This document shows, piece by piece, positions 1,171 to 17,252 of a DNA stretch of 18,617 nt. Origin of the DNA: Candidatus Nanohaloarchaea archaeon (lineage in GTDB: Archaea; Nanohalarchaeota; Nanosalinia; Nanosalinales; Nanosalinaceae). The DNA lies in NCBI GenBank assembly GCA_042218075.1, contig JBDGRK010000026.1, forward strand, positions 1 to 18,617, given 5' to 3'. Position 1 is the first letter of the stretch, and every line of letters begins with the position of its first letter. A model generated the notes under the pieces. The model was not told the DNA's origin. It saw only the letters and a program-made list of their open reading frames with translations, and did no database searches. The position numbers and the translations under genes were made by a program.

Positions 1171-1725
1171 ATGGCCAAGGCTGTGATCCAGAAAAACTGG
1201 TACGAGATCCAGATTCCCGACGTCTTCGACGAGGACTCTGTTTCAGAGACCCCCGCAGAGAAGGATTCGCAGGTCGTCGGCAGGACTGTCAGCGAGAACC
1301 TGACCGAATTAATGGATGGCTCGGAGAAGTATTATGTTGACGTGGAGCTGAAGGTTACAGATGTAGAGGGAAACAAGGCCTTCTCGGAGATCAACGGTAT
1401 GGAGTGTTCCTCCGAGTACGTTTCAAGGATGATCAGGAAGAGAAGCAACAGGCTTGATCTGGTTGAGGACTTCGAAACCGCGGACGGGAGAAAAGTTAGA
1501 ATAAAGATCGTGGGAGCAACCGTCAAGAAGACATCGACCCAGACACTCAAGGCTGTGAGAAACCGGATTACAGAGATAATTGATGAGAGAACTTCCGAGA
1601 ACGATTACAACCAGCTGATGGAGCAGATTTTTATGGACGAACTACAGCAGGAGCTGAGGGATGAGGTAAACGATATCTATCCTTTCAGGGAACTGGAAGT
1701 AAGGAAGACTGAGCTTCTGGAATGA
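1171..1725 (+). CDS. rps3ae: 30S ribosomal protein S3Ae (eS1)
   Basis: KNWYEIQIPDVF, VVGRTV, EYVSRMIRKRSNRLD, TADG and IYPFRELEVRKTE match eS1 motifs. Confidence 0.95.
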   Translation: MAKAVIQKNWYEIQIPDVFDEDSVSETPAEKDSQVVGRTVSENLTELMDGSEKYYVDVELKVTDVEGNKAFSEINGMECSSEYVSRMIRKRSNRLDLVEDFETADGRKVRIKIVGATVKKTSTQTLKAVRNRITEIIDERTSENDYNQLMEQIFMDELQQELRDEVNDIYPFRELEVRKTELLE

Positions 1726-1755
1726 TTTTAAAATACGCCGCCTCCAAACTTTGAT

Positions 1756-1920
1756 ATGGAACAGAAAGAGGCAATCAAGAATGGATTGTTGAGTTCGGCT
1801 ATCGCGCTGATTTTTACTTACCTCGTCAGCATGGTTGTACCCAACCCGGAACTTACCTGGGCAATGATCGCAGTCGGGTTCGCATCGTTCTTCTCCGGGT
1901 TTTTCTCCAGCTACTACTAG
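1756..1920 (+). CDS. Small two-TM membrane protein, 54 aa (below ORF-track cutoff)
   Basis: MEQKEAIKNGLLSSAIALIFTYLVSMVVPNPELTWAMIAVGFASFFSGFFSSYY*. TATA-like TTTTAAAATA at 1726-1735. Fills the gap and its stop overlaps the DoxX stop. Confidence 0.75.
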   Translation: MEQKEAIKNGLLSSAIALIFTYLVSMVVPNPELTWAMIAVGFASFFSGFFSSYY

Positions 1921-2315
1921 AGAAGGGCGTCAACCGCGTACTTGCCCGCGCCATTAAGGTAGTACATGAAGCAGGCTCCCAGCAGCAGCAAGTCTACCTC
2001 GTAACCACCTTCGAAGCCCTTGTCCATCTTTACTATCGCAATATAAGTCACGAAGACCATGAAGGCTGTCAGGAATAACGCCGCAAGCTGTGTGTACAGA
2101 CCTATAGCCAGCATCGTTCCCAGTACAATCTCGATCGCAAGAGCCAGATACACTAGAAATACTGAATCAGGTAGACCCACGCTCTTGAAGAATTCCCTGG
2201 TGGATTCCGGGTCCTCCAGCTTCGGAACTGCGTGTTTTACGAAGACAGAACCTAGAATAATTCTGAACGTTGCAAGCCCGAGAGCCGCGTACTGTGTGGT
2301 GAGTTCCAGAACCAT
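1917..2315 (-). CDS. DoxX family membrane protein
   Basis: FRIILGSVFVKHAVPKL, EIVLGTMLAIGLYT, GYEVDLLL and GAGKYAVD. SD-like AGGTGG just upstream. Confidence 0.92.
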   Translation of the reverse strand: MVLELTTQYAALGLATFRIILGSVFVKHAVPKLEDPESTREFFKSVGLPDSVFLVYLALAIEIVLGTMLAIGLYTQLAALFLTAFMVFVTYIAIVKMDKGFEGGYEVDLLLLGACFMYYLNGAGKYAVDALL

Positions 2316-2366
2316 GATACCACCTTAAAATAAATTTGGAGACACCGGTTTATAATACCTACTAGA

Positions 2367-2602
2367 GCCGGGGTAGCCAAGTGGCCAAAGCTCGATGAGC
2401 TTTGGGGCGCAGCGTTCGGAAGAACCGCTGCTCAAACAACTTTCGCTCGAAAGTTGTGGGTCACAGAAAACCGCATGGTTTTCGAGTGGTCAAAGGCGAC
2501 GGACTCAAGATACTTCCCGCTTCGTCGAAACGAAGCTGGTAGTTTTTACATTTTGATATCCGTTCCCGCAGGGGTTCCGGAGTTCAAATCTCCGCCCCGG
2601 CA
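2367..2602 (+). tRNA. tRNA-Leu(CAA) with a 105-nt D-loop insertion (~2390-2494) and a 48-nt anticodon-loop intron (~2510-2557)
   Basis: Removing both insertions gives GCCGGGG TA GCC AAGTGGCCAAA GGC G ACGGA CTCAAGA TCCGT TCCCGCAGGGGTTC CGGAG TTCAAAT CTCCG CCCCGGC A: perfect acceptor, anticodon and T stems, long variable arm, A73. Exact junctions are ambiguous because of short junction repeats. Confidence 0.88.
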
Positions 2603-2685
2603 TTCAGGAGATTTGATTACAGAAAATCTCCGATTTTCGAATTCTAGTCCTTTCCCCGGCAAGTATTCAATACAGTAGGTTTGAA

Positions 2686-3303
2686 TCAGGGAGGCATCCA
2701 GTGATAGTCGTAAACTTTAGGTTGAAGATAGTTGCCTTTCTCAAATCCCACAGCGGAAGAATCTAGATCAGAAGGGTTCAGATCATACGCTGCCAATTCG
2801 TTTTTGACTTGAGTAAGTGCCAACCTTGATGTTAAGAAGGAACCCGGACTCCAGTCGCTCTTAAGAACTCCATCCTCCAGATAATGCCTGTACGCCTGCT
2901 TGGCAGCGACCTCTTCCTGAACCAGAAACCTTCCGCCTTTACCCAGAGATATCACTTCCGCAAGTATATCTTCCCGGTAACCCTCTTGAGAGCGAAAATG
3001 TTGCCAGGTCTGGGCTTCGCTCCTGTTGAATTCCCTTTTTTCAAGACCTCTGGGAAACTTTACAACGGCTTGCCTACCTAGAACCTCTTCGTCAATATCG
3101 AAAGCAATTCTCCGGCTTCCTTTTCCCCGGTATTCCAAGGGGAAATCATCGGACAGAGATTCAGCCGATCTTAATACATTAAATGTGGTATCTTCCTCTT
3201 CCAGAGTCGTATCCAGCATCCTCTGGAATCTATGGTTGGCCTCTTCGAGCATCGATTCCGCGTCTGAAACGTCTGAATCTTGGTTTGATAAAGCTGCAGA
3301 CAT
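2686..3303 (-). CDS. Hypothetical protein with protein-kinase-like fold motifs
   Basis: In order: Gly loop RGKGSRRIAF, AVVKF, helix-C NRSE, hinge FLVQE, catalytic-loop-like DLDSSAVG, and KVYDY. Confidence 0.6.
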   Translation of the reverse strand: MSAALSNQDSDVSDAESMLEEANHRFQRMLDTTLEEEDTTFNVLRSAESLSDDFPLEYRGKGSRRIAFDIDEEVLGRQAVVKFPRGLEKREFNRSEAQTWQHFRSQEGYREDILAEVISLGKGGRFLVQEEVAAKQAYRHYLEDGVLKSDWSPGSFLTSRLALTQVKNELAAYDLNPSDLDSSAVGFEKGNYLQPKVYDYHWMPP

Positions 3304-3353
3304 CTATACCAGAGAAAGTTATGCTGAATCTATAAATAAAGTAGAACCAGGAG

Positions 3354-3701
3354 CTACTGCCCGAGATCGCTTAACTCTTCCTGTAAATTCTCTAGCTCGG
3401 AGTGGAGCTCATTCACAGAATCATCAAGTTCGTTTCTCTGCGGTTCCTCTCTCTCGTAGGATACCTGCTGCATATCCTCTACTTCCGGCATCTCGACCTC
3501 TACATCCTCCAGCTTTTCGTTAAGCCTGTCAATATTCTCGTAGACGGTCTCGATCGATTTCTCCTTTACATCCCTGACCTGTTCGAGAACTTCCGACGCC
3601 TCTCTAATATTCTCAATAATCTGCCTGATGGCTTCAAGGTCCTCTAACAGAATCCTGTAGCCGTCCACCCTGACGTAGAGTTGGTCTTCTTCCGATGGCA
3701 T
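3354..3701 (-). CDS. Acidic coiled-coil hypothetical protein
   Basis: LYVRVDGY followed by heptad-rich helices; host-like composition; TTTTTAATA about 30 nt upstream. Resembles from memory a small DPANN-type conserved protein (unverified). Confidence 0.8.
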   Translation of the reverse strand: MPSEEDQLYVRVDGYRILLEDLEAIRQIIENIREASEVLEQVRDVKEKSIETVYENIDRLNEKLEDVEVEMPEVEDMQQVSYEREEPQRNELDDSVNELHSELENLQEELSDLGQ

Positions 3702-3759
3702 CTTCCTGATTTTAAATTGATCAGAGCCCCTATTAAAAATACTTTCTCGAGGAAAAGAG

Positions 3760-3819
3760 TCAGAGGTGTTCAGTTGTCATCACCGCGGTTTCCCGCTCAG
3801 ACTTTACTTTCCTCATCAT
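3760..3819 (-). ncRNA. Box C/D guide sRNA
   Basis: Minus strand: C box ATGATGA, 12-nt guide GGAAAGTAAAGT, D' CTGA, hairpin GCGG-GAAA-CCGC, C' GTGATGA, 13-nt guide CAACTGAACACCT, D box CTGA. All four boxes match consensus with canonical spacing; intergenic. Confidence 0.88.
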
Positions 3820-3830
3820 TCAAGCAGATT

Positions 3831-4349
3831 CTAGACCTCTCCCTCGTGGTATCTCCCGGAATATCTTTCCGTCTCCTCTATCCTGTGGAAAACAAGCTGG
3901 TTGATCCTCGCATTCTGTTTTATCTCCACTCCTTCAGGATTCTCAACTACCAGCATGAAGCTGCCTGTCCCGGTGTATCCCGAGTCCCATACCGCGTTTT
4001 CGACGGAGCAACCCATCCTCAAGAGCGATGAACGCGGAAACGCGAAGGCAACGAGATCTTCGGGAATGTCTACCTTCTCGTTCATAACCACCTTGTAGGC
4101 TCCCTGTTCCAGCTTCCACCAGCCATATTCATCGCTCTCACTCTTCTTTACTGGCTCTATCGGCTCTGAATCCGGTATCTCCCTCTCGGAGTTAGAAAAG
4201 TCGAGCTTTCCACTACCCATGTACTCGTGTATCTCTCCAGCGGTAAGGTCGAATCCCTGGGGAGTCAGCTGCGTCTCCAGGTGCGGGTAGTTCTGTATTA
4301 AACCGTTTTCCTCTATCTCTTTCCTGAGTTCTTCCTTATTAAGAACCAT
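3831..4349 (-). CDS. dUTPase / dCTP deaminase family protein (archaeal dUTPase type)
   Basis: QLTPQGFDLT, FPRSSLLRMG, VWDSGYTG, ARINQLVF and YSGRY. Confidence 0.9.
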   Translation of the reverse strand: MVLNKEELRKEIEENGLIQNYPHLETQLTPQGFDLTAGEIHEYMGSGKLDFSNSEREIPDSEPIEPVKKSESDEYGWWKLEQGAYKVVMNEKVDIPEDLVAFAFPRSSLLRMGCSVENAVWDSGYTGTGSFMLVVENPEGVEIKQNARINQLVFHRIEETERYSGRYHEGEV

Positions 4350-4430
4350 AAATCAAAATTCAAAGCATAAAACTAAAAGTTTCACACTTCGGCAGAAATC
4401 CTTAATAAGAAATAGAAACAGAGTTAACAC

Positions 4431-6542
4431 ATGAAGTTCAAACTTCTGCTTCTTGGAACCGCACTTTTAATGACCGCAAGCGTGGGAACCGCACAGTCAG
4501 CTGAAAACACGAACCTGGACACTGTTTTAGTTACCTCCACAGCAAACTACCCTGATACCTTCCTGGCAAACCCGGTATCGGAAAAGCTTGGAGCGCCTAC
4601 AATACTGACCGAGAAGAATTCTCTGCCTAGCGAAGCATCCGAAACCCTTTCAGAACTTGACGTGGAGGAAGCTGTAATAATTGGAGGGCCCAGCGTTGTG
4701 AGCGAGTCAGTGGAGCAGGATATAGATTCAGAGGTAAACACCACTACCAGGCTATGGGGAACAACGCAGGTAGGAACCTCTTCAGAGGTTTCAGGATACT
4801 TCTGGACCGGGAGCAAGGAAGCAACTTTAGTCCAGTATCCGCTTGAATCCATGGATTCCTACAGGGCGCTGGCACGGGCTTCTCACGAATCTGATGAGAA
4901 TCCACTGATTATTTCCAAACCGGGAACCCTTTCAGCTACTGCACTGACGGAAATCGAAAGACTTGGCGCGACCGAAGTAGAGGTATACTCCACGAACTCA
5001 GTAAATGTGACACAGGACCTGAAAGAGATCGGTGTGAAGGAAGTAAATATTGAATCTCTTGATTCCCTGGCGGAAGAAGATCAAAATAATACAAAGGTTT
5101 TCGTGGCGGCACCGGAGTTCAGGCAGGCTTTATCGGCTGCGGCCTCAAGAGGCAGCACTTTTATAGTACAGAGAGAAGATGAAGTGTCAGAGGCAGTCAC
5201 CGCGGCCCGGCAGAGCGAGAATGACAAACTATATGTTACAGGTCAGGCTGATCTGGCCGCCCGGATAGCTGAGAGTCTGAGACAGGAGACTGATAAGCAA
5301 GCTGTGCTGATACCTGGAGAACCTTCAAAGGTATCCGCCAACTTGACGGGGCGAGAGGCCGAAGAATGGTCCAGGGAACAGGATCAAGAGCTTTCAGAGT
5401 GGAGGCAGAACGCAAAAACATCACCCGGACTGAAGAAGGCCGCAAATAAATCTATAGAGAGAGCGAAAAGTTCTGTAGATCAAAACAGCTCGGAAAACGC
5501 CAGGGAACTGCTTCAGGACGCGAGAGATGCTTACAGGGATGGCGACTACTTCGAGGCCAGGAAGCTTGCGACGAGGGCACACTCCACCGCAAGGTCTGAA
5601 GAGTTCAGGTCGATGTCACGAAAAGAAATACGGGAAAAAGTGGAGCAAGACAGGGAAGACTTCAGGCAAGCCTCCGATGAGCTATCGAAACTCGGCCAGG
5701 AACAGGCCGAAGAACTCAGGAACGCTGAATCAATGGAGGAGAGGCTGGAGATCATAAGGGAGTACAGGCAGCAGAGGAGAGAGGTTTTAAAAGAGCTGAA
5801 ACAGAAGGCTAGAGAGAACGGAAGGGACGTAGAGAAGAGACAGAGATCCGGGGGAGAAAGATTCAGGCAGGAATCGGGCGATTCAGAAGATGTAGGCAGT
5901 TCGGAGCTTTCGCTTGAAGTCGAAGGAAACGAAGTGAAAGCAAAAGCTGAGTACACCGCCTTCACAGCCGGATACACGTATGAGACGAGCTTTGATGGGA
6001 ACGGATCGCCGGTCGAATTTGATCTCCGCCTGAACTCTCCGGAAGGACGTGCAGCACAGGTAGTCAGCGATTACAGGCTTGAGAGAAGGGAAAGGCTTGG
6101 TAATGGAAGCTACAACGTAAGCGCGAGATTTGTTCTTGATGGAGAGGAGCTTGAATCTATTCAGAAGCAGGTGAAGGTTCCATCGCAGCAGGAGTTCGAG
6201 AGTGAATCGGAAGCCGCCGAGGAATCCTCCAGTGGAGAAGACAATGTTGTCAGGTACACTGATTCAGGGTTCATGCCACGACAGATCACTATTGAGCAGG
6301 GAGAGACTGTGAAATGGATAGATGAAAGTTCAAGATCGATGTGGGTTGGTTCAGATATGCATCCGACTCACAGAAAGTACGATGGTACATCACTGAGAGA
6401 GCACTGCGAAGGCGGCGAGAGCGATACCTTCGATCAATGCTCGGTAGGAGACGAATACGAGTTCGAGTTTGAGAAGACAGGAGAGTTCGGTTACCACAAC
6501 CACAGGTTCGATTCTCACTCTGGAACCGTGATAGTGGAGTAA
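4431..6542 (+). CDS. Secreted/surface multidomain protein: signal peptide, cell-wall-binding-2-like repeats, charged helical stalk, beta-rich domain, C-terminal cupredoxin-like domain
   Basis: Signal peptide MKFKLLLLGTALL...TAQS. CWB2-like NYPD...APTILT...LP...IIGGPSVVS...RLWG. E/R/K/Q-rich middle. C-terminal GFMPRQITIEQGETVKW...FEFEKTGEFGYHNH...GTVIVE. Confidence 0.82.
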   Translation: MKFKLLLLGTALLMTASVGTAQSAENTNLDTVLVTSTANYPDTFLANPVSEKLGAPTILTEKNSLPSEASETLSELDVEEAVIIGGPSVVSESVEQDIDSEVNTTTRLWGTTQVGTSSEVSGYFWTGSKEATLVQYPLESMDSYRALARASHESDENPLIISKPGTLSATALTEIERLGATEVEVYSTNSVNVTQDLKEIGVKEVNIESLDSLAEEDQNNTKVFVAAPEFRQALSAAASRGSTFIVQREDEVSEAVTAARQSENDKLYVTGQADLAARIAESLRQETDKQAVLIPGEPSKVSANLTGREAEEWSREQDQELSEWRQNAKTSPGLKKAANKSIERAKSSVDQNSSENARELLQDARDAYRDGDYFEARKLATRAHSTARSEEFRSMSRKEIREKVEQDREDFRQASDELSKLGQEQAEELRNAESMEERLEIIREYRQQRREVLKELKQKARENGRDVEKRQRSGGERFRQESGDSEDVGSSELSLEVEGNEVKAKAEYTAFTAGYTYETSFDGNGSPVEFDLRLNSPEGRAAQVVSDYRLERRERLGNGSYNVSARFVLDGEELESIQKQVKVPSQQEFESESEAAEESSSGEDNVVRYTDSGFMPRQITIEQGETVKWIDESSRSMWVGSDMHPTHRKYDGTSLREHCEGGESDTFDQCSVGDEYEFEFEKTGEFGYHNHRFDSHSGTVIVE

Positions 6543-17176: not shown

Positions 17177-17252
17177 GGCGGGGTAGTGTAGCGGACTATC
17201 ATCGTACCCCGGGGCGGTACGGACCCGAGTTCAAATCTCGGCCCTGCCACCA
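17177..17252 (+). tRNA. tRNA-Pro(GGG), CCA encoded
   Basis: GGCGGGG/CCCTGCC acceptor, GTACC-CCGGGGC-GGTAC anticodon arm, CCGAG-TTCAAAT-CTCGG T arm, terminal ACCA. Confidence 0.9.

Follow-up and report, generated by a model that had tools for sequence, protein, structure and literature searches.

A two-intron tRNA-Leu(CAA) gene in a nanohaloarchaeon, with a 105-nt D-loop intron that carries a relaxed archaeal splicing motif

An 18,617-nucleotide (nt) contig of Candidatus Nanohaloarchaea archaeon (NCBI GenBank assembly GCA_042218075.1, contig JBDGRK010000026.1), called the window below, carries at 2367-2602 a tRNA-Leu(CAA) gene split by two introns, one of 105 nt in the D-loop and one of 48 nt in the anticodon loop. 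It is very probably a functional gene, the only tRNA-Leu(CAA) gene detectable in this DPANN nanohaloarchaeon, from whose transcript both introns would be cut by the endonuclease EndA before RtcB joins the exons. The window is contig C19 of a metagenome-type assembly (G000) of 1.10 Mb in 40 contigs, with 46.9% G+C, 92% completeness and 1.2% contamination.

The two-intron gene had been proposed from the bare letters, together with the forecast that standard scans would miss it, and both proposals stand. On the raw sequence, ARAGORN makes no call at 2367-2602, either by default or with introns of up to 300 nt allowed, and its default run over the whole window returns only an intronless tRNA-Pro(GGG) at 17177-17252. 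Rfam gives no match in the window at its gathering threshold, this tRNA-Pro(GGG) included, and within 2300-2700, at E-values up to 10, nothing but a weak look-alike on the T-arm and acceptor. The Rfam blank is weak evidence, as an intronless tRNA was missed too. Once the 105 nt are deleted in silico, ARAGORN calls a tRNA-Leu(caa) of 83 nt with a 48-nt anticodon-loop intron, and once both introns are deleted an intronless tRNA-Leu(caa) of 83 nt. The spliced product is a class II archaeal tRNA-Leu with a 7-bp acceptor stem, a long variable arm, the T-loop TTCRAAT and A73 (Table 1). The segment 2389-2493 was also picked as an intron independently by a blind scan of 218 regions, in which every candidate made of a 4-bp helix, 3-nt bulges and a 4-bp inner helix near a T-arm motif (9,932 candidates) was spliced and then submitted to ARAGORN.

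Table 1. Features of the tRNA-Leu(CAA) locus (window coordinates) and related loci elsewhere in the assembly (contig:coordinates)
Feature	Position	Strand	Details
tRNA-Leu(CAA) gene	2367-2602	+	three exons, two introns; discriminator A at 2602; CCA not encoded; from sequence reading and ARAGORN after splicing
Exon 1	2367-2388	+	acceptor 5' strand, D-stem 5' strand, D-loop to about nucleotide 21; from spliced alignment and register scoring
D-loop intron	2389-2493	+	105 nt, HBh' type, at about position 21/22 (our own numbering, +/-1)
Exon 2	2494-2509	+	end of D-loop, D-stem 3' strand, anticodon stem 5' strand, anticodon CAA at 2506-2508
Anticodon-loop intron	2510-2557 (equivalently 2511-2558)	+	48 nt, relaxed motif; from ARAGORN and register scoring
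Exon 3	2558-2602	+	anticodon stem 3' strand, long variable arm, T-arm (loop 2583-2589), acceptor 3' strand, A73
Helix H, 5' strand GGCC (exon)	2383-2386	+	pairs with 2488-2491; 5' bulge 2387-2389, predicted cut after 2388
Helix H, 3' strand GGUC (intron)	2488-2491	+	3' splice-site loop 2492-2494, predicted cut after 2493
Inner helix h', 5' strand GCUCGA	2390-2395	+	pairs with UCGAGU at 2482-2487; one G-U pair, then five further pairs
Local 9-bp hairpin CCAAAGCUC-GAU-GAGCUUUGG	2385-2405	+	competes with the splicing fold; conserved in the homologous G014 intron
Hairpin module GAAAACC-GCAU-GGUUUUC	2466-2483	+	conserved; ends 10 nt before the predicted 3' cut; followed by CGAG
3' trailer	2603-2661	+	weaker version of the layout in which a tRNA 3' end is duplicated
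Trailer: inverted T-loop/T-stem copy	2607-2616	+	complementary to 2584-2593
Trailer: second hairpin module	2622-2638	+	repeats AAATCTCCG of 2586-2594
Trailer: second CCCCGGCA	2654-2661	+	equals the last 8 nt of the tRNA
Further hairpin loci	C10:87934-87950; C10:102673-102689; C23:7107-7123; C37:2315-2331		
Further hairpin loci at contig ends	C21:2-44; C33:12-54		
Ala(CGC) with 3'-end copy	C15:64905-65299	-	
Trp(CCA) with 3'-end copy	C23:110010-110328	-	
Ser(TGA) with 3'-end copy	C20:12630-12950		
Ser(GGA) with 3'-end copy	C10:87784-88300		
Ala(GGC) with 3'-end copy	C40:45790-46024	-	
Ser(CGA) with 3'-end copy	C6:19546-19830		
Misread or spurious ARAGORN loci	C10:87784-88010; C10:90055-90196; C10:90247-90371; C15:38625-38791; C10:54592-54740; C12:19028-19125		

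The D-loop intron is flanked by a near-direct repeat, AGTGGCCAAAG at 2380-2390 and AGTGGTCAAAG at 2485-2495, identical at 10 of 11 nt. The pattern AGTGGYCAAAG matches these two sites and no others in the window, as the sequence-only reading had it (0.01 match expected; none of 200 shuffles reaches two); its exact blocks are of 5 nt, below a 6-nt repeat seed. An assembly error at this short repeat would suit the flanking near-repeats and a metagenome-type assembly in 40 contigs, but it is next to impossible, since contigs from three runs and two studies cover the region and homologous introns occupy the same site in other genomes. The three public DNA runs that contain the region yielded a contig of 1,284 nt covering 2100-2584 with 0 differences, a contig from the second study covering 2206-2444 with 1 difference and bridging the 5' junction, and, in the third run, a contig of 140 nt covering 2374-2513 with 0 differences. 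The D-loop insertion is real and not an artefact of assembly. A contig of run X3 (depth 7.5) contains this intron in a version with substitutions at four positions, 2404, 2413, 2427 and 2445, and therefore points to a co-occurring sister strain with a diverged intron copy. Joints such as 2509>2558 seen in DNA contigs were considered as traces of splicing and rejected: the samples contain other organisms, and the joints derive from their genes, which lack introns or are interrupted in another way.

The splicing motif of the D-loop intron was sought by scoring its six equivalent splice registers. In the geometry used, which is that of the literature on archaeal tRNA introns, helix H is formed by the two tetranucleotides that precede the 5' and the 3' bulge, both bulges are of 3 nt and the cut falls after the second bulge nucleotide; the same geometry yields intact anticodon stems for the canonical introns of this genome. 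Exactly one register has all four pairs of H and all six of the inner helix h' (one of them G-U). In this register, both splice-site bulges read AA^A (2387-2389 and 2492-2494) and the 5' site is a true 3-nt bulge between H and h'. Introns shuffled in place pass a slightly looser version of the motif test in 22 of 20,000 trials. The insertion is what had been claimed, a long, structured intron at a non-canonical position, and its motif is the standard archaeal 4-bp-helix geometry in the HBh' form, a relaxed form already named in the section of PMC4090602 that deals with such motifs.

The comparison with relatives carries this assignment further. A spliced aligner applied to the relatives' loci recovered Leu(CAA) in 20 other genomes of the family, with a D-loop intron in seven, no intron in eight, only an anticodon-loop intron in three and T-arm introns in two. 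All four genomes of the same genus have the D-loop intron (93, 69, 78 and 40 nt), and it recurs in three other genera (38, 40 and 34 nt) as well as in 2 of the 16 Leu(TAA) genes examined (79 and 51 nt). Ten Leu D-loop introns were thus compared: that of G000, those in Leu(CAA) of G001, G002, G003, G004, G017, G019 and G023, and those in Leu(TAA) of G008 and G014. Each of the ten has exactly one register that combines a fully paired H and 3-nt bulges with an inner helix in which the leading 3-6 pairs form. The insertion site is identical in eight; the other two, both from the genus of G000, lie 2 nt downstream. Across the set, H varies yet stays paired (GGCC/GGUC, GGUC/GAUC, GGCC/GGUU, GGCC/GGCC, UCAA/UUGA), and so does h' (GCUCGA, CUCCU, CUCCA, CUCUG and others).

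These data do not support one element of the sequence-only reading, that of a 6-bp central helix departing from the bulge-helix-bulge motif (BHB), although all the pairings it listed can form (TGGCCA/TGGTCA and CTCGA/TCGAG in the D-loop intron, TCAAGAT/ATTTTGA in the anticodon-loop intron). Recognition through the helix TGGCCA/TGGTCA would call for either two independent cuts or an endonuclease with a different spacing. Both additional A-U pairs can form in this sequence, a constrained fold extends H to 5 bp, and relaxed enzymes can, according to the part of PMC4090602 concerned, cut single bulge-helix units independently. However, the pair A2387-U2487 has no counterpart in the introns of G014 (where A faces C), G001/G004, G023, G017 and G008, and only the 4-bp register is common to all ten introns, which makes recognition of the longer helix very improbable.

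The locus itself is orthologous to those of relatives, since the upstream gene (1917-2315, minus strand) adjoins Leu(CAA) in six of them; the comparison at this locus, already envisaged when the gene was proposed, bears the proposal out with its shared synteny and with the D-loop intron of the four congeners. Intron content at this syntenic locus within the genus is 105+48, 93, 69, 78 and 40+60 nt. The exons are intact and match the intronless Leu genes of relatives. A short-word BLAST search of the whole assembly with the spliced sequence found three Leu-like genes, the window gene, Leu(TAA) at C10:92814 and Leu(GAG) at C10:102606; there is therefore no second Leu(CAA) in the assembly, and the intact copy elsewhere that could have marked the window gene as a pseudogene was not found by this search. 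The spliced Leu(CAA) differs from the Leu(TAA) of one relative (G005, L003) solely at anticodon base 34. Its T-arm is of the type found in the relatives' Leu(TAA), and the syntenic Leu(CAA) genes of the same genus (G001-G004, L041-L044) have a different T-arm. To judge by these sequences, the likeness of T-arm and the single difference at base 34 suggest gene conversion between Leu genes or an anticodon switch.

The anticodon-loop intron is relaxed in a different way. In the 37/38 register, only the first and last of the four H pairs form, the five pairs of the outer helix h form and the anticodon stem is intact; in the 38/39 register, H is complete (UCAA/UUGA) but the outer helix is interrupted; in neither register does the inner helix pair well. 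Thus, no 4-bp helix lies in register with the anticodon stem plus two 3-nt bulges for 2510-2557, and the intron counts as relaxed because its 4-bp helix is one nucleotide off the anticodon-stem register. That this intron lacks a strict BHB had been recognized beforehand, and it holds in the sense that H and h are not paired in one common register. The further claim that relaxed or stepwise splicing would be needed survives in its first half, given the missing outer helix of the D-loop intron and the one-nucleotide offset of the other; a stepwise order is not required.

Interrupted tRNA genes abound in this genome. With introns allowed, ARAGORN lists 37 tRNAs, 28 of them with an intron and many of these introns of 46-226 nt, several calls among the 37 being wrong owing to extra introns. 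The H, h and h' pairing strings of the 28 called introns vary widely, and many combine a paired stem and central helix with a poor inner helix. D-arm introns were found by the blind scan in Gln(TTG) (52 nt) and Val(TAC) (42 nt), and by eye in Ser(TGA), Ser(GGA) and a second Gln-like gene; the Ser D-loop introns escaped the strict blind scan, their 5' site lying, as seen by eye, in a 4x2 or 3x1 internal loop. For published nanohaloarchaeal genomes, the relevant part of PMC10266531 gives counts of intron-bearing tRNAs only, e.g., 15/39 and 4/38.

The enzymes expected for such splicing are present. A single EndA gene was found (C10:58238-58846; an open reading frame (ORF) of at most 203 residues; PF01974, 94.6 bits; PF02778, 65.6 bits; TIGR00324, 106 bits), and RtcB is encoded at C26:11292-12581 (535.6 bits). 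Neither a beta-subunit model, nor tblastn, nor a lineage-specific hidden Markov model run over all six-frame ORFs detected a second EndA or a beta subunit; the only match of the beta-subunit model, the same EndA ORF, scores 17.6 bits where the cut-off is 101. Across 25 genomes of the order, some of them single contigs, 23 have one EndA and two have two near-identical matches. The closest named relatives of the protein are from Candidatus Nanosalina, Nanohalobium and other Nanohaloarchaeota (59-68% identity), and the more distant ones (51-59%) include Aenigmatarchaeota and unclassified archaeal metagenome-assembled genomes. From this gene content, a homotetramer (alpha4) is the simplest inference. 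Between the catalytic Tyr and His, the protein carries an insert of 7-9 residues, GVNPYKDGPKED, which is gapped against structures 1a79 and 5x89 (M. jannaschii alpha4 and Methanopyrus kandleri) and aligned in 3iey and 4fz2 (N. equitans alpha and ARMAN-2). Of 14 translated relatives, 13 conserve the insert, in which GPK is invariant; the remaining sequence was mis-translated. A relaxed endonuclease had been expected for this genome; a crenarchaeal-type heterotetramer is not what it has, and EndA typing puts in its place one alpha-type EndA whose loop insert is of the DPANN type. In the relevant part of Kaneta et al. 2018 (PMC5829648), a 'Nanoarchaea/ARMAN-2-specific' L3 loop is described in DPANN EndAs, alpha4 enzymes included, and is linked to many disrupted tRNA genes.

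Taken together, maturation of this tRNA can be modelled as follows. The gene would be transcribed as a pre-tRNA of ~236 nt containing both introns. The exonic GGCC and the intronic GGUC would form the canonical 4-bp helix, so placing the 5' cut within an AA^A bulge closed by the 6-bp inner helix that both intron ends supply, and the 3' cut, also at AA^A, within an internal loop next to the D-stem. At the anticodon loop, UCAA would pair, one nucleotide off-register, with the UUGA at the 3' end of the intron. The single alpha-type EndA with its loop insert would cut all four sites, and RtcB would then join the exons.

Several points weigh against this model. The outer helix of the D-loop motif is absent (string ':xxxx', at most one G-U pair), for which reason the intron is of the relaxed HBh' type and not of the strict hBHBh' type, which asks for outer h and inner h' helices of at least 2 bp each flanking the bulges. 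For the same reason, the 3' splice site lies in an internal loop by the D-stem: 2492-2494 stand opposite four unpaired D-loop nucleotides and do not form a true bulge. Moreover, the unconstrained minimum-free-energy (MFE) fold (-107.8 kcal/mol, z = -6.8) lacks the splicing motif and sequesters the 5' splice site in the local hairpin 2385-2405; forcing H and h' alone gives -102.2 kcal/mol, a penalty of 5.6 kcal/mol. On the side of the enzyme, alpha4 endonucleases were classically thought to need a strict motif, according to passages of PMC4090602 and PMC5829648, no assay of any nanohaloarchaeal EndA was found in the open-access literature, and the insert is probably the 'L3' loop of Kaneta et al. 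2018, with which it is equated because it is common to the two named organisms, N. equitans and ARMAN-2. Among public runs, no RNA run contains window positions 1500-4500. Finally, a second Leu(CAA) or an EndA beta subunit could lie in the missing part of the 92%-complete assembly. As to the fold, the conservation of the competing hairpin in the G014 intron implies that the competition may be real, perhaps regulatory; it could instead be resolved by tRNA tertiary folding or by a protein.

The lack of RNA reads and the hidden 5' splice site, along with an intronless Leu(TAA) that ARAGORN calls at C10:92813-92897, would also fit a pseudogene inactivated by the insertion, UUG codons then being read by tRNA-Leu(UAA). 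Against this stand exons free of damaging change relative to intronless orthologues, a splicing motif that is intact and improbable by chance, a D-loop intron kept with a valid motif in all four congeners, the lack of another Leu(CAA) in the assembly and D-arm introns in at least five other tRNAs of the genome. A sole Leu(CAA) with undamaged exons, in a genome where other tRNAs have D-arm introns, makes a pseudogene unlikely, and indeed highly so.

Two other identities were tried for the D-loop intron and rejected. The Haloferax tRNA-Trp intron encodes a C/D box small RNA, a class marked by a C box (RUGAUGA), a D box (CUGA) and a terminal stem. In the present intron, only a partial C-like CGAUGAG (2393-2399) occurs, with no CUGA, and Rfam, at E-values up to 10, gives no small nucleolar RNA match; the C-like stretch reads CGGUGAG in the homologue on contig C7 of G014, and the G014 copy on C36 keeps CGAUGAG. 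As for a self-splicing group I or II intron, no Rfam ribozyme matches 2300-2700 at E-values up to 10, and 105 nt are far too short.

Archaeal non-canonical introns reported in 2007-2009 are mostly of a few tens of nucleotides. As they are summarized in sections of PMC4090602 and PMC4033280, these introns resemble the present one in being protein-spliced outside position 37/38, in a gene that also has a canonical intron, and in having a 4-bp helix with 3-nt bulges and one flanking helix only. Those cases involve an (alpha-beta)2 enzyme with the crenarchaeal loop, whereas the present one concerns a DPANN nanohaloarchaeon, a 105-nt intron and a single alpha-type EndA. A closer counterpart is the D-arm HBh' intron of the Methanopyrus kandleri pre-tRNA-Glu(UUC), of the same motif class and in the same tRNA arm, the maturation of which is supported by RNA-seq in the account of Kaneta et al. 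2018 (PMC5829648); there, however, an (alpha-beta)2 EndA without a specificity loop cuts poorly in vitro, in contrast to the single-subunit, insert-bearing enzyme found here. Among the loop-bearing EndAs of DPANN archaea (ARMAN-2 epsilon2, N. equitans (alpha-beta)2 and 'L3-harbouring alpha4'), as treated in parts of PMC5829648 and PMC3239211, those of N. equitans and ARMAN-2 share the insert with the G000 enzyme, and G000 is likewise rich in disrupted tRNA genes, a feature noted for DPANN archaea in PMC5829648 (28 of its 37 ARAGORN calls have an intron, some of these calls being wrong). The D-arm intervening sequences of Asgard archaea (bioRxiv 10.64898/2026.10.13.758758) were, in the parts of that preprint concerned, likewise overlooked (by tRNAscan-SE) and often lie at motif-compatible boundaries, their gain being unexplained; by contrast, they belong to another superphylum, have a median of 22-23 nt as against 105 nt, and come with no report there of a shared hairpin module.

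Non-canonical or multiple HBh' introns, D-arm introns and loop-bearing DPANN endonucleases are thus already in print. D-loop introns of Nanohaloarchaeota, their motif and the hairpin module met below were not found described in the open-access literature, and the observations on the hairpin are possibly new. For enzymology, the locus offers a defined natural HBh' substrate of 105 nt with a competing hairpin, in a lineage with a single loop-bearing alpha-type endonuclease; substrate and enzyme together provide a direct test of whether loop inserts, and not subunit architecture, set substrate breadth, as is claimed in the cited part of PMC5829648. For evolution, the locus provides a case in which intron content changes within a genus at one syntenic locus. 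Since such genes are invisible to ARAGORN and Rfam, the codon-reading capacity of reduced nanohaloarchaeal genomes is under-called.

The origin of the D-loop intron is a separate matter. The 105-nt block may, though this is rather unlikely, have begun as a mobile or copy-prone element bearing a hairpin, which inserted into the D-loop with duplication of ~11 nt of target and was tolerated since the duplicated palindromic GGCC and the ends of the element happen to supply the splicing motif. Such an origin is compatible with a functional, spliced gene. It would account for a flanking repeat that, at 10 of 11 nt, exceeds what the splicing motif demands, and for the change of intron content within the genus at one locus. 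It also fits an intron core ~90% identical to the 51-nt D-loop intron in Leu(TAA) of G014, a member of another genus, and in the gene of another isoacceptor; relative to the latter, the extra 54 nt of the window intron are two added hairpins. Similarly, the 93-nt D-loop intron of G001 (L041, C28, minus strand; tRNA at 508-683 of the reversed locus) is a composite of a 53-nt piece related to the window intron followed by a different, 40-nt intron of the G004 type, with AGTGGTCAAACTCCT (15 nt) present twice, exactly repeated across the exon-intron junction. On the other hand, the flanking repeat is largely forced, as a palindromic tetramer pairs with its near-copy and the bulges are A-rich, leaving only ~4 free positions; no transposase, integrase or terminal-inverted-repeat system is linked to the element, and no clean pair of filled and empty sites was found in near-identical strains.

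The hairpin at the end of the intron belongs to a wider set, which is met in tRNA introns and trailers throughout the order and often adjoins duplicated tRNA sequence. In its relaxed form, GAAAAYC-N3-5-GRTTTTC, usually followed by CGA, it occurs at 28 loci in G000, 9 of them within 120 nt of called tRNAs, two more in T-loop-interrupted tRNA-like sequences on contig C3 and others away from tRNAs or at contig ends. The strict pattern has 99 matches in 28 of 41 genomes of the order versus 1 for a reversed-pattern control, an abundance that speaks for a copy-prone element. The stem is conserved in sequence and does not covary. All 6 strict-pattern (CGA) copies in or beside called tRNAs of G000 are in sense orientation. 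Of the 5 hairpin-bearing introns measured, 4 have a distance of 9-10 nt from the end of the hairpin to the 3' cut downstream of it. So placed, the hairpin may stack on the inner helix and thereby extend it for a single-subunit endonuclease.

A related layout is seen at tRNA 3' ends. Six of the 37 tRNAs have an exact second copy of their own 3' end, of 14-25 nt, at 50-104 nt downstream, as against 1 of 37 in an upstream control, which again favours insertion. The hairpin stands between the two copies in all three cases checked (Ala(CGC), Trp(CCA) and Ser(CGA)), the spacers of Ala(CGC) and Trp(CCA) contain an inverted T-loop copy as well, the start-to-start distance is 76-78 nt in four cases, and Ser(GGA) has a third, degenerate copy. 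The downstream copies were tried as T-loop introns and rejected, as no register has a paired H with a flanking helix and only trivial palindromes or all-G-U helices appear. Empty sites for the Ala and Trp trailer elements were sought in relatives, and the same architecture was found in other genera instead. Trailer duplications without a splicing motif, in an architecture conserved across genera, fit a function as well as mobility.

From these observations, a more specific reading can be drawn, in which short insertions would form a family across the whole lineage, the D-loop intron being one copy; they would end in GAAAAYC-loop-GRUUUUC-CGA, enter tRNA genes at the D-loop, the T-loop or the 3' end with a target duplication of 8-25 nt, and often carry an inverted copy of part of their target. 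It is held only tentatively, as a rather improbable proposal, because, on the register test, the duplications do not qualify as splicing substrates, and other genera share their layout. If true, insertion into a palindromic target such as GGCC would itself create a bulge-helix-bulge, and hence a spliceable intron, and landing at the 3' end would leave an intact tRNA followed by a second copy of its own 3' end; this would be a concrete and testable route by which intron DNA enters archaeal tRNA genes, on which the hairpin-plus-repeat pattern gives a handle. Large-scale transposition of tRNA introns was reportedly described in Thermoproteales by Fujishima et al. in 2010. A mobile-element model of tRNA gene disruption was put forward for Caldiarchaeum by Sugahara et al. 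2012 (in the relevant part of PMC3293823). As far as these accounts go, both systems likewise show related introns in different tRNA genes and tRNA fragments duplicated beside inserted DNA; unlike them, G000 has a shared unit that is a hairpin of ~17-21 nt with short flanks, repeats of 8-25 nt and no recombinase-bearing element in sight.

Several minor observations concern other tRNA loci of the assembly. Judged by eye, ARAGORN's 'Arg(tcg)' is a Ser(GGA) with a D-loop intron, its 'Ser(gga)' is a Val(GAC), its 'Cys(aca)' and 'Ile(tat)' both stand for Gln genes that have a D-loop intron, and two further calls look spurious; about ten expected isoacceptors are absent from its list. At C3:2520-2600 and C3:3690-3775, T-arms GGGGTTCAAA ... 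AATCCCGG are split within the T-loop, each by an insert with the hairpin module at its end; they probably belong to tRNA genes that have a T-loop intron and escape ARAGORN. Lastly, ~128 nt after the second copy of the Ala(CGC) 3' end (C15:64799-64926(-)) are 96% identical to the region after Ala(GGC) (C40:45791-45917(-)) and 76-82% identical to loci in two other genera. This segment has no Rfam match; it contains two stable hairpins as well as UGAUGA and CUGA boxes and, on these sequence features, could be a C/D-box-like small RNA co-transcribed with tRNA-Ala.

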